DNA from: Vulcanimicrobiota bacterium
GTDB taxonomy: Bacteria; Vulcanimicrobiota; Vulcanimicrobiia; Vulcanimicrobiales; Vulcanimicrobiaceae
Direction: 5' to 3'
Assembly (NCBI GenBank): GCA_963833095.1
Contig: CAWHWQ010000002.1
Span: 224,001 to 288,000, forward strand
Length of the DNA: 64,000 bases
Made by a program: the position numbers. Below are positions 21,001 through 27,000 of this stretch, one piece after another. The stretch's first letter is position 1, and each line of letters opens with the position of its first letter.

Positions 21001-24000
21001 TATAGAGTCGCACGTGTGAATCGCGAACAGCGATCGTACGCTGCGCCGGAGCAATCAAATTCCAATCGAGTGCGCCGGATTGCAGCATGAGCAGATTCGT
21101 CGACGGATCCGAGGCAATGCGCACGTCGAGCCGATCGACGGCCGGCTTGCCACGCCAGTAGCGTGGATTGGCGCGGTAGGTGAGCGATTCGCCGCGTGCC
21201 CATGCCACAAGCGTATACGGTCCGTCGCTTACGTAGGGCAGCCGCGAAAGCGGCACATGCGCCGGAAGCACGACTTGCGGAATGATCCCGTAGGAAAAAT
21301 ACGTCGACGTCGCGGGCGCCCACGCGCGCCGCAAATGCAAGATCACGGTATGCGCATCCGGCGCGGTGGCGCGATCGATCAGGTCGTAGCCTTCGCGGGA
21401 GCGCACGGGATTGCGCGGATCGAGGATCTGGCGCAGCGTGTACAGCACGTCCGTGCTGGTCAACGCGGCGCCGTCGCTCCAGCGGACATTGGGTCGCAAA
21501 CGGTAGATGATGGTTCGTCCGTCAGCGGAAAGATCGCCGTTCGCAAGGCTCGGAATCCGCGCGAGAAGCACCGGCACCGGGGCCCCATGCGGGTCCAGAT
21601 CGAGGAACGGCTCGTAGGCGAGGCGCGCAAGCTGCGCCTCGGCCGAGGACGCGTCCGGCTGAATGAAGAGCGGGTTGAGCGTCGAGGGATCTTTTGCAAG
21701 ATCGAACCGCACGAGTCCCGCCGGTGGCGCCGCGGGGCTGCCGCCTTTGGCGCAGGCAGCCCACGATGAAAATGCGAGGACCGAAATGGCAGCGGCCAGA
21801 TATCCTCTGGCGCTAAACATTAACCTTGCGTATGTGCTTTTGTTTCAATGATCCGTTTTCGAGAACATCATAGAAGACTCCCAATTGCATCTTGGCCGCC
21901 TGTTCTGCAATCGCGGGCCACGCTCGGAAGAAACACGCAAGCTGCCTCCTGATAGGCCGTGAGGAGAACCCGTTAGGCAAGAAAAATGCGCGCCCGCGGT
22001 ATTTTTGGTAGAGCGCGCACTCAACATGAGTCTTTCCTCTCGTTTTTATTTGTGCCTGATCGGCCGTAATAACCACCAGTCCATCTCGGCAAACGCGAGG
22101 TATCCATTCACTATCTTTTGTGTCGGCGCGGTAGAGATCCGTCAAGTGAATAACATCTTCGCCGAACAACTTAAGAGCGGCGGAAAAGTTCGGCGAAATA
22201 CAGGCGTCGAGAAAGAACGTCAAGCGGCCAATTCTAGCCTTGTCTCGTACTCGATCGCATCTTCGACACCGTTCTCAGACACTCGATACCAGGCCGCAAT
22301 CCGCTTGATCGGTTCCCCCGCCTTATGCATCCCATAAAGAGCGTACGTTGGAACACCCGTCTCGCGGTTAATAGGCGCGCCAAACGAACGCTCCGGGTCT
22401 AAGACGACGGACTTGCCCTTACCGAGTGGCGTGATTTCTCTTGCAACATCGCCATCGTAAACGACGATATCGTGCAGAAGTGGCTTCACTATCGTCTCGA
22501 ACGCTCTATTACCCGATGCCAGCTCTACGAGACCCCCATCTCCGCTAGACTTCTTCGCAAAAATCCCGCCACCGTAGAGACTATATTTTCTAGTGGCAAA
22601 CGGATATGCCCCGAACTCCGCCCTCGCCGCCGAGTACGCATCTCGAATATCCCGCGTCCGGACATTTTCAGCGCGCATTGCAGCAACCGTCATAAGCTCG
22701 ATTAGCTCAAGAAATCTAATAGTGTCTCGTTCCGCAATCTTCAGATTTGCCGAATGAACGACGGCGGCGTAGCTCTTGATAAACTCTTTTCTGCCGCGTC
22801 GCCAGCGTCTCAGACTGGCCTGCGCAATCTTTGTTCGCAGGGCTTCTGTCAGGATTCGAGCGGTATCAGCAACGGAGTATAGGCCAACACCAAGCAGGTC
22901 GTCGGCATCGAACGCCAAGCTCACGCGAAAATCACCATCTTGCGCCAGACTTGGGCGAGCCATTCAACTAAACCCCTCACCCGCTAAGGGCACCAAAGTT
23001 ATACGAACGTATGTTCGAGTTTGCTCGATGAATGCCTTTTCTTCGAACGGCTGCTCTGGGCAAGTCGGGCGCTGCCCGATGCCTTGAACGAACGAATGTG
23101 GGGTGGTATAGTCAGATCGCCGAATAGCTTGCGGCAAGAAATGCGAATCTGGCGAATATGATTATCTCCGAGGACCTCGATCAGCTCGACCTTGCGCTGT
23201 TGGACGCACTTCAGCGCAATGGACGCTCGACCTTCGCCGAGCTCGGCGCATTGGTTGGGCTCAAGCCGCCCGCCGTCCACGATCGCGTGAAGCGGCTCGA
23301 ACAGCGCGGCCACATCCGCGGCTACAGTGCGCAACTCGACGGTCGCAGTCTGGGCCTCGAACTGATCGCCTTCGTGAGTTGTTATACGACTCCGGACGCC
23401 GCTTACGATCGGTTTACCAAAAGCTTGAGTGAGATGCCCGAAGTGTGCGAGGTCCATTCCGTGGCGGGCGAAGAGTCGTTCGTCTGCAAAGTGATGACGC
23501 GCTCGACGCACCACCTCGACGAGTTGCTCTCTCGTCTCAAGGCGACTGCCGGGCATGGCGCGCACCAAAACCACGATCGTCCTTTCGACACCGTTCGAAC
23601 GCGACGGTATCTCGGTGCGCTCGTGAGCATCGCGCCTGGGCGACGATTGCATCCGCTGGGCACGCATCGCGTGATAGATCCGGCCGGCGCCATGCCGCAG
23701 AACGCTTGGAAGGTCGACAACACGCCGGTCGCGCTTGATAACGAAATTCTGTGCGAAGTCGAAGTGCTCAATATCGACTCGGCTTCGTTCAAGCAGATCG
23801 CCGACGCATGCGACGGAAACGCCGCGCGGATTGCGGAGCACGTTGAGGGCACCGTCCGCGAACGCGGCAAGCAGCATAACCCGGTCACCGGCAGCGGCGG
23901 CATGTTCATCGGTTACGTTCGGCAGATCGGCAAGCGATCTGCGCGACTCGCTCGACCTTCACGCGGGCGAACGCATCGCCTCGCTCGTCTCGCTCACGCT

Positions 24001-27000
24001 CACGCCGCTGCACATCGAATCCGTCGAACGCGTCTGACTTGACAACCGGGCGCATTTGGATTCGCGGGAAGGCGTGCTGTTCGATCCGGCCTGTGGGCCA
24101 CGCTGCCGGACGACATCGATGAAAACGTCGCGCTTGCCGTGCTCGATGTCGCGGGCGCGCCGGCACAAGTTCGCCGTCTCTGCGAGCCGGGACAAACCGT
24201 CGTCAATTATCGGCGCCGACGGCAAGAGTGGAATGCTCGCGTGCGCGCAAGCCAAAGCGCGCGTTGGTTCGAGCGGCCACGTCATCGGCATCGCTCCGTC
24301 GGATCAGACCGAAGCAGCAAGACTGCTCGTCGAGCATGGCTTGGTCGACCGTTTCATCGTCGCCGACGCTCGCGACGCGCTCGACCTTAGCGAAAAGGTT
24401 GCGCTGCACGCACTGCAGCTCGCCGACGTGACGATCAATTGCGTCAACGTCCCCGGAACCGAGCTGGCCTCGATCCTGTGCACCAAGGACCGAGGTACCG
24501 TGTACTTCTTCTCGATGTCGACGTCATTCACTGCGGCCGCCCTCGGCGCCGAGGGCGTCGGCAAAGACGTCACGATGATCGTCGGCAACGGCTACGTGCG
24601 CGGTCACGCGGAGACCGCCTTGCAGACGCTGCGCGATCACCCCGCGATTCACGCCTACTTCACACGCCACGCTACGCCGACCGCATCAAGGAACCAGTAA
24701 ACCATGAGCGAGATCACGCATCTCAAGCCGCCCGTCCCGCCGTCGCAGTTCGAATACAAGCACCTCAAGCAGGGCGAGTTTTGGCGTCACATTCCCGCCT
24801 ATCGCGAGATCGACGAGGCGACGTTTCTCGATCATCTCTGGCAGCAGAAAAATGCGGTCAAAACGCCGCAAGAACTGCTCGCGACGATCAAAGATCTCGT
24901 GCTCGCCCGGAGTTCTTTGCCGACGTGGAAGAAGGCTTCGCGCGCGCGCCGATGGCCGTGCGCGTCTCGCCGTACGCGCTCGCGCTGATCGACTGGAAGG
25001 ATCCCGTCAACGATCCGATTCGCCGCCAGTTCGTTCCGCTTGCCTCCGCGCTGCTGCCCGATCATCCGCGGCTGACGCTCGACTCGCTGCACGAACAGGA
25101 CGACTCGCCGGTTCCAGGCCTCGTGCACCGCTACGTCGACAAGGCGCTCTTTCTTCCGCTCAACACGTGTCCGGTCTACTGCCGCTTCTGCACGCGCAGC
25201 TACGCGATCGGCCCGGATACCGAGAACGTCGACAAAGTCGCGCTCGCCAAAACGCCCAAGCAATGGGAAGACGCGTTCCAATACATCAGCGAGCGGCCCG
25301 AGCTCGAAGACATCGTCATCTCCGGCGGCGACACGTATCAGCTTCCGCCGAAGAACATCGAGCTCATCGGCAACGCGTTGCTCGACATTCCGCACGTGCG
25401 CCGCATGCGCTTTGCGACTAAAGGCCCGGCGATCATGCCGATGAAGATCATGACCGACACCGCGTGGCTCGATGCGCTCACGGCGATCGTCGACCGCGGC
25501 CGCGCGATGGGCAAGGACGTCGTGCTGCACACGCACTTCAACGCCCCGAAGAGATCACGTGGATCACGGAAAAGGCGATGCGCTCTGCTCTTCGAGCGCG
25601 GCATCTTCGTGCGCAACCAGTCGGTGCTGATCCGCGGCGTCAACGACACGCCCGAACGCATGGCGCTGCTGGTCAAGCGGCTCGAGTACGTCAACGTTCA
25701 TCCGTACTACGTCTACATGCACGACATGGTCAAGGGCGTCGAGGAGCTGCGCACGACGATCGCAGACCGTCGATCGAGATCGAGAAGTTCGTGCGCGGCG
25801 AACCGCCGGCTTCAACACGCCGACTGTTCATCTGCGATGCGCCGGGCGGCGGCGGGAAGCGCGACGTCCACTCGTTCGACTACTACGATCGCGAGAACGG
25901 CATCTGCGTCTACACCGCGCCGAGCCGTCAAACCGGACAAGGCGTTCGTCTACTTCGATCCGATCGATAAGCTCTCGCCCGACGCGCAAGCGCGCTGGGC
26001 CGTCAAGGAGCTTGCCGACCAGATGATCCGCGAAGCCCTTCGTAGGGCGGGCGACGCGGCCGACGAGTTGGTCCTGGCATAATCTGGCACCCGCAGGAGG
26101 CGGGTCGAGGTTCGGAGTGCAGGAAGCACGACCGCCGAAGGCGGACCGAACCGTGGTGAATGAGAAGGCCTTTCGCCTCGACTTCTTCATTGCGATTGCC
26201 GCGCTGCTGGTCAGCACGCTGACGGCTGCGACGTTGCTCTACCAGACGCACGTCATCAGCGACCAGTACGCGGCGACCATCTGGCCCTATCTGAGCAGCG
26301 GGTCGACCGCAGATCCCAACGGCGTAGCGCTTACGGTTGCGAACGACGGGTTAGGACCCGCGCTGATCGAATCGGCGCAGCTTTCCATCGACGGTGTCCC
26401 CGTCCCGTCGTGGGGCGCATACTTCGCGCGACTCACGCGCGACCCGATCCTACGCGTCTACTTTTTAAAGGTGCGCCGGCTTAGTGCGGCCGGAAAATTA
26501 CCGTCCGACGCGGGCATCACAACGGGATCGATCAGCCCCGGCACCACCATTCGGCCGGGGGACAAGCTCACGATCCTGCACGTGCACCTGCCGGGCCTAC
26601 CGCTGCCGGCCGTGCTGCGCCACGCGTTGGTCCTAGATTTCTGTTACTGCTCGCTCAACGGGAGCTGCTGGACGCTGCACAACGACACCGAATCCGAAAA
26701 AAGCGAGCAGCCCAAACCGGTCTCGCACTGCACGACCTCGGCAGCGATCAGTGCATCGTTTGCTACGTCCCCTTCTGTGCGCCCGCGTAGAAAATGACTT
26801 TGAAGATCGCTTGCGGGACCGTGATAAGCGTGTTTGGATTGCCGTAGGCGAGATAGAACTCTTCGCTGCGGAGCCGCAAGTGATAGGCGACGGAGATGTT
26901 CGTGCAGGTTCCCTCGCAGTTGCCCCCGCCATTCGGTTGCGGCGGCATGCCGACGACCTTGCGCACGCCGATCGCAAACGACGAGCTTCGATCGATTTGA

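Follow-up and report, generated by a model that had tools for sequence, protein, structure and literature searches.

Within the window analysed here, a 64,000-nucleotide stretch of the genome of a Vulcanimicrobiota bacterium, the three co-directional genes at positions 23158–26082 are an operon comprising an lrp/asnC-type regulator gene, kdd and kamA. This operon is probably intact in the living organism, with its frame breaks being errors of the consensus, and together with other loci it probably encodes the 3,5-diaminohexanoate route of lysine breakdown.

Gene order and features of the locus

The preliminary description had placed kdd and kamA side by side at 23158–26082. Adjacency and outer coordinates hold, but position 23158 is the start of the regulator gene, and kdd starts near 23623. 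Upstream, a sigma-70-like promoter candidate was found on the plus strand at 23084–23112 (TTGAAC, a 17-base spacer and TATAGT, with an upstream TG), from which the regulator ATG lies 46 bases on. It is the sole such site in 22900–26900, where 0.7 would be expected by chance, and its position makes it a suggestive candidate.

The Lrp/AsnC-family transcription regulator gene (23158–23626, plus strand) carries a 1-base insertion at 23545 that disrupts its reading frame. Its product matches the Pfam domains HTH_AsnC-type (E 3e-16) and AsnC_trans_reg (E 1e-11), and the ortholog in the related genome G002 is intact with 155 aa; in tblastn, residues 1–132 align in frame 1 at 94.7% identity and the remainder in frame 2. 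The gene for L-erythro-3,5-diaminohexanoate dehydrogenase, kdd, follows on the same strand at 23623–24700, and in G002 it overlaps lrp by 4 bases. Seven indel events inside the gene (23932, 24037, 24074, 24084, 24203, 24661 and 24679) mean that its 3′ end is not exact. The third gene, kamA (24704–26082, plus strand), for a KamA-family radical-SAM/PLP aminomutase, holds nine such events (24901, 24909, 25545, 25581, 25762, 25769, 25802, 25823 and 25923). Both genes were recovered by tblastn in two frames, at 72–73% identity for kdd and 81–91% for kamA. Read as it stands, the broken window sequence yields in Pfam only a Radical_SAM match for kamA and only a weak ADH_zinc_N match for kdd, so the identities of both genes rest on their intact orthologs. 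Downstream of kamA, a plus-strand open reading frame of 226 aa (26117–26797) may be a fourth operon gene. It had no match in Pfam or NCBIfam, and its poorly conserved G002 counterpart has 211 aa and overlaps the kamA stop codon.

Identity of the enzymes and the remainder of the route

The Kdd protein of G002 (353 aa) scored 246.7 on NF052381, above the cut-off of 200, and matched a solved 3,5-diaminohexanoate dehydrogenase (PDB 7dl3) with an E value of 1.8e-89. The KamA protein (457 aa) reached 232 on TIGR00238 (cut-off 199) and 249 bits on the lysine 2,3-aminomutase equivalog TIGR03820, far under the cut-off of 525. It aligned over residues 30–387 to the lysine 2,3-aminomutase of Clostridium subterminale (PDB 2a5h; E 1.2e-66), which has 416 aa and differs at the termini. 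The CxxxCxxC motif is retained, as are the residues aligned to R134, D293, D330 and K337 of that structure, which we take to be lysine-binding and PLP residues. On these sequence grounds, the kamA product of the window is probably a lysine 2,3-aminomutase.

A full enzyme set for the route had been proposed, and the search of the genome bears this out. Genes kamD and kamE are intact and above cut-offs, kce is present in three frame pieces, kal is intact and above its cut-off, and both the A and B subunits of the CoA-transferase were found, with an acyl-CoA dehydrogenase gene adjoining. A kamB–kamC reactivase pair, absent from the original list, adjoins kce. Kdd, KamD, KamE, KamC and Kal exceed their NCBIfam equivalog cut-offs, with Kce orthologs slightly under theirs (363–379 vs 382) and KamB also below (163–167 vs 210). 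A PduO-type B12 adenosyltransferase is encoded as well. The route genes occupy four or five separate loci, and they are likewise scattered in G002, a relative whose genome is complete. The claim of aerobic respiratory oxidases likewise stands, as COX1 and cytochrome bd subunit I were both found, and the genome encodes a heme-copper oxidase (COX1) and two cytochrome bd oxidases.

Origin of the frame breaks

Comparison of the window with the intact G002 operon, at 87% nucleotide identity, revealed, from 23545 to 25923, 17 indel events that together affect all three genes. Thirteen are insertions, of which most lie outside homopolymers, and four are deletions; all measure 1–2 bases. The preliminary description had one gene cut by one assembly frameshift, which falls short of damage across three genes and, elsewhere, in kce and the neighbouring opp genes. 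For comparison, contigs of four public runs were used, which belong to one study, possibly including the source sample, and drop rare variants. These contigs match the flanks at 22198–22881, 23134–23385 and 26014–27500 with 0–2 differences and no gaps, and read the in-frame version at the sites where window and G002 differ. Among the alignment rows listed, 12 indel differences occur, and every contig covering each one carries it wherever it appears; at 2 of these 12 sites, a single run has one contig that passes without a gap (run X3 at 24037 and run X4 at 24073). The stretch 23545–25923 is a low-quality consensus patch, with 17 indels of 1–2 bases and, relative to the run contigs, 0.7–5.5% substitutions. 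Of the 17 listed kamA substitutions, 15 affect the third base of a codon, and the patch is therefore attributed to a different strain haplotype.

We read the indels as consensus errors rather than gene decay. In a long-read-style metagenome assembly, the consensus within the patch probably followed another, poorly covered strain. That the operon has truly decayed in this strain, leaving lrp, kdd and kamA as pseudogenes and the organism without the route, is very improbable. Such decay would account for the 17 frame breaks in these neighbouring genes and for a likewise broken kce, and loss does occur within the genus, as genome G017 is without kdd and KamD. Moreover, the patch represents a haplotype of its own, with k-mers that are absent from the run contigs examined, and a rare strain might really carry a broken allele. 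Yet the run contigs covering the listed indels are in-frame wherever they appear, with flanks identical to the window. The dN/dS values of the operon also argue against decay: between window and G002, dN/dS was 0.033 for lrp, 0.062 for kdd and 0.044 for kamA, a range of 0.03–0.06 that is not above that of intact relatives (0.066, 0.042 and 0.020, respectively, for G009 vs G002), and two flank genes gave 0.062 and 0.118. Bacterial gene decay is deletion-biased, and an excess of insertions such as this one is unusual for it. Finally, equally dense patches strike unrelated genes. The whole window contains 57 uncompensated frame-breaking indels, 34 of them inside two patches, the second of which (14186–17555) hits the FAA-hydrolase, pntA, pntB and RidA genes; on contig C5, oppB and oppC are broken along with kce, and the G002 orthologs are intact; and the second cox1 of the genome is split into six frame pieces. 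The genome, in 8 contigs, is 80.7% complete, compared with 92–96% for relatives of like contiguity.

Distribution within the phylum

In a phylum sample of 301 genomes, Kdd scored above cut-off in 206 and KamD in 198, so the phylum frequency given earlier is roughly reproduced for these two families. The accompanying claim of a phylum-wide enrichment was overstated, as the signal comes mostly from the family of the window, with about 90–93% for both proteins there and ~20% elsewhere. Kdd occurs in 191 of 206 genomes of that family and in 18 of 94 elsewhere; in the sister family f3, neither Kdd nor KamD was found in any of 22 genomes, and a control set of 14 named genomes likewise gave 0/14 for each. 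The two proteins co-vary, being both present in 181 of the 206 family members and both missing in 10, with nearly equal by-family tallies.

The kamA core, for its part, is present in 31 of 31 relatives, including 7 of 7 from f3. The f3 genome G026 has lrp followed directly by kamA and is without kdd, kamDE, kal and a true kce, and the same-genus G017 retains lrp–kamA with kdd cleanly missing and kamD missing. Because lrp–kamA persists in these genomes, KamA would have some use beyond the route. These cases do not agree with calling the enzymes dedicated, and the scores of KamA and Kce under equivalog cut-offs also count against the earlier interpretation. One could go further and take lrp–kamA as the conserved unit, mainly making beta-lysine for another purpose (as a solute, for modification or as a metabolite), with kdd, kamDE, kce and kal as an optional add-on for disposal. 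The contrast between the ubiquitous kamA core and the lack of Kdd and KamD in f3, the arrangements in G026 and G017 and the low KamA equivalog score are all consistent with this, but we consider it quite unlikely. In the family of the window, kdd separates lrp from kamA and overlaps the former, and the three genes would therefore be co-expressed; an AblB-type beta-lysine acetyltransferase was above cut-off in 0 of 5 genomes tested, and KamDE is the sole consumer of beta-lysine that came to light.

Proposed pathway and oxygen regime

In the preferred reading of an intact lysine route, KamA would convert L-lysine to beta-lysine, which KamDE, dependent on adenosylcobalamin and PLP and kept active by the KamB/KamC reactivase, would turn into 3,5-diaminohexanoate. 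Kdd would oxidize the latter to 3-keto-5-aminohexanoate, from which Kce and acetyl-CoA would give acetoacetate and 3-aminobutyryl-CoA. Kal would then release ammonia to leave crotonyl-CoA, and acetoacetate would be activated by the 3-ketoacid CoA-transferase. The Lrp-type regulator would respond to an amino acid by activating the operon. Given the terminal oxidases of the host, the products would go to acetyl-CoA and respiration rather than to butyrate fermentation, and the route may operate under oxic conditions.

Alternatively, the intact route may be run as in classical fermenters, during anoxic or micro-oxic episodes of a facultative host, with crotonyl-CoA going to butyrate instead of feeding aerobic respiration. 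We regard this as unlikely, albeit with an appreciable chance. In its favour, KamA belongs to the radical-SAM enzymes and the route has been described in anaerobes, but enzymes of this class do function in aerobes, and the KamA (YodO) of the aerobic Bacillus subtilis is comparatively oxygen-tolerant. The best 80 Kdd loci are mostly from Clostridia, Spirochaetota and Holophagales, and the acyl-CoA dehydrogenase beside the CoA-transferase would suit fermentation. Two cytochrome bd oxidases are typical of low-oxygen life, but a heme-copper oxidase is encoded too. The phylum has a single cultured representative, an aerobe, which points both ways. Passages of PMC9758169 report no growth on L-lysine, as already mentioned in the preliminary description; this counts against the lysine route as such and fits fermenter-style use. 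They also report no anaerobic growth whatsoever, which argues against such use. In six supplementary files of that article, the terms aminomutase, diaminohexanoate and kamA had no match.

Comparison with known systems

In the literature that was searchable, no paper was found to link Eremiobacterota or WPS-2 to this route, in line with the preliminary description. Lysine fermentation in Fusobacterium nucleatum and Acetoanaerobium (Clostridium) sticklandii reportedly proceeds through KamA, KamDE, Kdd, Kce, Kal and AtoAD (Kreimeyer and co-workers, 2007). The same enzyme family is found here at every step, and the NCBIfam equivalog models whose cut-offs Kdd, KamD, KamE, KamC and Kal exceed were made for this pathway. 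In contrast, those genes form one operon there and four or five loci here, kdd–kamA is headed by an Lrp/AsnC regulator gene, the host carries aerobic oxidases, and KamA and Kce of this lineage are under equivalog cut-offs. Moreover, a quick tree with 83 Kdd rows places Kdd of the window family in a separate clade on a long branch, away from the 77 rows of Clostridia, Spirochaetota, Acidobacteriota and others, and the label clostridial-type is thus overstated for the window family. Overall, the preliminary observation is partly confirmed and its interpretation partly supported.

The pathway of the two fermenters is outlined in sections of PMC3149608 and PMC3994512, the former of which also describes a Kat variant in 'Candidatus Cloacamonas acidaminovorans'. 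Within the phylum, genome G033 (family f6) has one cluster with kdd, a HemL-like class III aminotransferase, kce, kamB and kamC but no Kal, which, as judged from gene content rather than from comparison of the aminotransferase with Kat, is the arrangement expected for that variant. In the lineage of the window, by contrast, Kal is above its cut-off and kdd has no aminotransferase of this kind as a neighbour.

As for use in aerobes, a Brevibacterium isolate for which no sequence data are known is said to have degraded 3,5-diaminohexanoate aerobically in work by Hong and Barker in the 1970s, in which enrichment was reportedly on the intermediate, not on lysine. If so, it would be a precedent for Kdd and Kce in an aerobe. 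The pathway encoded here is itself known; what is new is the aerobic-looking lineage that carries it, in which its function and oxygen regime are predicted from the genes.

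Organization of the operon and identity of its enzymes

Segment 23158–26082 (+ strand) holds three genes. The preliminary description had placed kdd and kamA side by side here, which was borne out, but it had not counted the gene for an Lrp/AsnC regulator (lrp) that belongs to the same set. The ORF starting at 23158 (+) reads as this regulator at first (HTH_AsnC-type, E 3e-16; AsnC_trans_reg, E 1e-11) and then passes out of frame into kdd. Read on its own, the window gave a weak ADH_zinc_N match for kdd and a Radical_SAM match, and nothing more, for kamA. The complete relative G002, used as the main reference, carries intact and tightly packed copies of lrp (155 aa), kdd (353 aa) and kamA (457 aa) at the same place, with kdd overlapping lrp by 4 bases. 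When the G002 proteins were used as tblastn queries, each operon gene of the window was found in two frames; kdd matched at 72–73% identity, and the kamA copy was readable across two frames, not one. The kamA core was present in all 31 related genomes searched (68–96% identity), a count that takes in one unpublished genome, G030.

The G002 Kdd scored 246.7 on NF052381, the equivalog model of L-erythro-3,5-diaminohexanoate dehydrogenase (cut-off 200), and aligned over nearly its full length with the solved 3,5-diaminohexanoate dehydrogenase of PDB entry 7dl3 (E 1.8e-89). The G002 KamA scored 232 on a KamA-family subfamily model (cut-off 199) and 249 on the lysine 2,3-aminomutase equivalog, whose cut-off is 525; against the solved lysine 2,3-aminomutase of PDB entry 2a5h, the E-value was 1.2e-66. 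It retains the CxxxCxxC motif together with residues aligned to R134, D293, D330 and K337 of 2a5h, which we take to be lysine- and PLP-binding.

A promoter-like site ahead of the operon (23084–23112) did not rise above chance. Downstream, an ORF at 26117–26797 (+; 226 aa) could be a fourth operon member. It is without family match and poorly conserved between species, and in G002 its counterpart (stretch L011, 9896–10531, 211 aa) overlaps the kamA stop. Just upstream of the operon, a PIN-like gene (PIN_10/DUF5615) overlaps a DUF433 gene on the minus strand (21813–22963), likely as a toxin–antitoxin pair. Further out on the same strand, 18753–21820 holds a gene for a family-5 peptide-binding protein (SBP_bac_5), 1.3 kb upstream of the operon, and one for a 507-aa protein without family match. 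On the other side, also on the minus strand, a pentapeptide-repeat protein adjoins an M56 peptidase of BlaR1 type that is itself fused to pentapeptide repeats (28802–31665), and the repeats show several multiple-of-three indels in the alignment to G002. A 3.4-kb gene for a GH92 glycosidase–beta-propeller fusion (1142 aa) in G002 (L015:11316–14744) is entirely absent from the window at 17920/17935.

Origin of the frameshifts

The preliminary description regarded kdd as a single gene that a frameshift of the assembly had split. Alignment of the window to G002 (87% nucleotide identity) revealed 17 indel events of 1–2 bases each within 23545–25923 (13 insertions, 4 deletions), most of them away from homopolymers and distributed over lrp (one), kdd (seven) and kamA (nine). 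A single frameshift in one gene was thus rejected and had been a large understatement; the attribution to assembly error is very probably right. Within 4 kb on either side of this patch, all indels relative to G002 were compensated or multiples of three. Across the whole window, 57 uncompensated frame-breaking indels relative to G002 were counted, of which 19 fell in 14186–17555 and 15 in 23545–25923, giving a density of ~6 per kb in these two patches vs ~0.4 per kb elsewhere.

The damage could in principle reflect genuine decay of the operon or an erroneous consensus, and contigs from four public runs of one study (X1–X4), among which the source sample may itself figure, bear on this choice. 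In the flanks (22198–22881, 23134–23385 and 26014–27500), these contigs matched the window with 0–2 differences and no gaps. Within 23472–26043, they differed from it by 0.7–5.5% substitutions and, in addition, by indels where the alignment to G002 had shown them, namely at 23545, 23935, 24037, 24073, 24083, 24203, 24901, 24912, 25543, 25581, 25823, 25923 and five more. A listed indel present in a run was carried by all contigs covering it in that run, except that 24037 (X3) and 24073 (X4) were each spanned by one contig without a gap. Depth came close to zero in every run over 25312–25495, and over 25496–25679 this held for two of the four; support for the indels at 25543 and 25581 comes from X1 and X2, and for those at 25823 and 25923 from X1 only. 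Of the kamA substitutions listed (24791–25083), 15 of 17 lay at third codon positions, which suggests that the patch is the haplotype of a different strain, covered thinly and bearing raw-read errors.

Substitution patterns and the wider genome point the same way. Between the window and G002, dN/dS was 0.033 for lrp, 0.062 for kdd and 0.044 for kamA; the respective values between the intact relative G009 and G002 were 0.066, 0.042 and 0.020, and those of two flank genes were 0.062 and 0.118. In patch 14186–17555, the 19 uncompensated 1–2-base indels break the FAA hydrolase, pntA, pntB and RidA genes, all of which are intact in G002; this patch probably represents the same kind of consensus error. 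Elsewhere in the source genome, kce, oppB and oppC are fragmented where G002 has whole orthologs, a second cox1 gene (heme-copper oxidase subunit I) is split into six frame pieces (C5:52674–53984), and a GAPDH gene (L028, 9654–10937) gives a family match for its C-terminal half only. Completeness of the source genome is 80.7% in 8 contigs, vs 92–96% for similarly contiguous relatives. The reading as real pseudogenes was rejected on the run contigs, the dN/dS values and the error patches in unrelated genes. These data, taken with the patchiness of the indels, make it very probable that the indels in the operon are a consensus artefact, and the operon is assembly-damaged but otherwise ordinary. 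The 38% identity to Acetoanaerobium sticklandii reported previously for KamA was probably lowered by these frame errors.

Remaining genes of the lysine route

The full set of enzymes of the 3,5-diaminohexanoate route, as claimed previously, proved complete at annotation level. Both subunit genes of the beta-lysine 5,6-aminomutase are intact and adjoin each other on contig C1, with KamD (C1:788025–789542) scoring 794.9 on NF052384 (cut-off 600) and KamE 345.3 on NF052385 (cut-off 280). The kal gene (C1:836731–837135), likewise confirmed as present and intact, scored 195.4 on NF052388 (cut-off 160) and stands by itself, flanked by mazG and a MATE transporter gene. The kamB–kamC reactivase pair had been absent from the earlier list. 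KamC (C5:431015–432559) scored 315.6 (cut-off 300) and the adjoining KamB 163.4 against a cut-off of 210, with part of the model matched; the same score pattern was obtained in G002. Also adjoining kamC, kce is present in three frame pieces. Its intact orthologs had NF052387 as best model, with scores of 363–379 against a cut-off of 382, and adjacency to kamB–kamC supports the assignment. Broken peptide ABC permease (opp) genes follow kce on C5. Two CoA_trans subunits (CoA-transferase A/B, C5:506180–507600) are encoded divergently from an acyl-CoA dehydrogenase, with a putative role in acetoacetate conversion, and a PduO-type cobalamin adenosyltransferase is also encoded. One intact COX1 gene and two genes for cytochrome bd subunit I bear out the aerobic equipment ascribed to the organism.

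The scatter of these genes, listed earlier as a caveat, is real: in G002, assembled as one contig, they occupy four separate loci, with kamDE at 0.62 Mb, kal at 0.67 Mb, lrp–kdd–kamA at 1.02 Mb and kamBC–kce at 1.89 Mb. The CoA-transferase of the source genome makes a fifth. Whereas classical fermenters have the route genes in one operon, the lineage of the window has them in four or five loci.

Distribution and origin

The phylum was sampled with 301 genomes, of which 206 had a Kdd and 198 a KamD over the respective cut-off, tallies that take in eight and six unpublished genomes in that order; neither was found over cut-off in the 14 control genomes (0/14 each). The high frequency reported for the phylum was roughly confirmed for these two proteins. 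At E-value thresholds of 0.001 (Kdd) and 1e-100 (KamD), Kdd was detected in 191/206 and KamD in 186/206 genomes of the window's own family (Vulcanimicrobiaceae, f1), compared with 18/94 and 20/94 in all other families, and the phylum-wide signal is therefore mostly that of one family. The sister family f3 had neither (0/22 each). Within f1, both proteins occurred in 181 genomes and neither in 10, while five were without Kdd only and 10 without KamD only, in a set of kin that are not independent.

Some genomes keep kamA without the rest of the route. In G026 (f3, 97% complete), an intact kamA comes directly after lrp (L030, 6594–8494), and searches of this genome for KamD, Kdd, Kal and true Kce found none. 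In G017, from the window's genus and 91% complete, lrp and an intact 457-aa kamA are separated by a 30-base gap (L116, G017:C3:99000–111000, 6171–8029); kdd is cleanly missing, and KamD was not found either. Since lrp–kamA is kept in both without Kdd and KamD, KamA is of some value outside the route. Conversion of beta-lysine to N-acetyl-beta-lysine was rejected as such a use, because an AblB-type acetyltransferase over cut-off was found in 0/5 genomes.

Relatives of Kdd occur in at least 565 species genomes elsewhere, and the best 80 of these belong mostly to Holophagales, Thermoanaerobaculia, Spirochaetota and Clostridia. These 80 were combined with the sequences from G002, G009 and G006 in a quick, midpoint-rooted tree of 83 sequences, a sample biased toward its query from G033, which belongs to family f6 of the Eremiobacterota. 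The six f1-type sequences stood apart as one clade (SH-aLRT 100, branch length 0.95), and the G033 Kdd nested among Holophagales-like sequences; recent transfer from Clostridia was without support in this tree. In G033, a minus-strand cluster (L031, G033:C1:120000–138000, 5178–10832) comprises kdd, a HemL-like class III aminotransferase gene, kce, kamB and kamC, and Kal was not found in this genome. This layout is the arrangement described, in passages of PMC3149608, for the Kat variant in 'Candidatus Cloacamonas', and to judge by its gene content the cluster looks like that variant of the lysine route. The cluster has genes for urocanate hydratase and an M3 peptidase as neighbours. The earlier label 'clostridial-type' is not apt for the window's lineage because f1 Kdd forms a clade of its own and G033 differs in both placement and layout.

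Discussion

A literature search, mostly of titles and abstracts, found no publication linking Eremiobacterota or WPS-2 to the 3,5-diaminohexanoate route, in agreement with the preliminary description, and no paper joining diaminohexanoate with Brevibacterium; one of the two leading papers on Eremiobacterota and lysine proved to deal with cadA of Patescibacteria. Passages of Vital et al. (PMC3994512) assign the lysine pathway to numerous phyla, Actinobacteria and Thermotogae among them. For the cultured phylum member V. alpinus, passages of PMC9758169 report no growth on L-lysine, as had been stated earlier, or on any other single substrate tested, and no anaerobic growth; the route genes are not mentioned in six supplementary files of that paper. 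As annotated, this is a known and complete pathway, hitherto undescribed for such a lineage and lifestyle.

From the identities and order of the genes, we infer the following activities, regulation and oxygen regime. The Lrp-type regulator would control kdd and kamA. KamA would make beta-lysine, which KamDE would turn into 3,5-diaminohexanoate with the help of adenosylcobalamin and the KamBC reactivase. Kdd, Kce and Kal would then yield acetoacetate, crotonyl-CoA and ammonia, and the CoA-transferase and beta-oxidation enzymes would deliver acetyl-CoA for respiration. The SBP_bac_5 gene upstream of the operon and the peptide permease genes beside kce hint at peptides as the lysine source. We propose tentatively, as a reading that may well turn out otherwise, that f1, which accounts for most of the phylum's sampled species, has its own divergent, near-core and vertically inherited radical-SAM/B12 lysine route under an Lrp-type regulator, run in a respiring cell and turning lysine, perhaps from peptides, into acetyl-CoA and ammonia.

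Pseudogene and split-gene counts from the source genome are unreliable because of consensus patches with ~6 frame-breaking errors per kb, and gene-level identities taken from it, such as that of 38% to the reference KamA, are probably depressed by consensus errors.

If the proposal is true, f1 would be the first lineage with an 'anaerobe' pathway as a standard part of aerobic soil metabolism. Should the route work, an abundant, almost uncultured phylum of soils and cold deserts would use lysine by oxygen-sensitive radical chemistry while respiring, which would bear on its life where soil nutrients are scarce and on the choice of feed for cultures, namely lysine or peptides plus vitamin B12.
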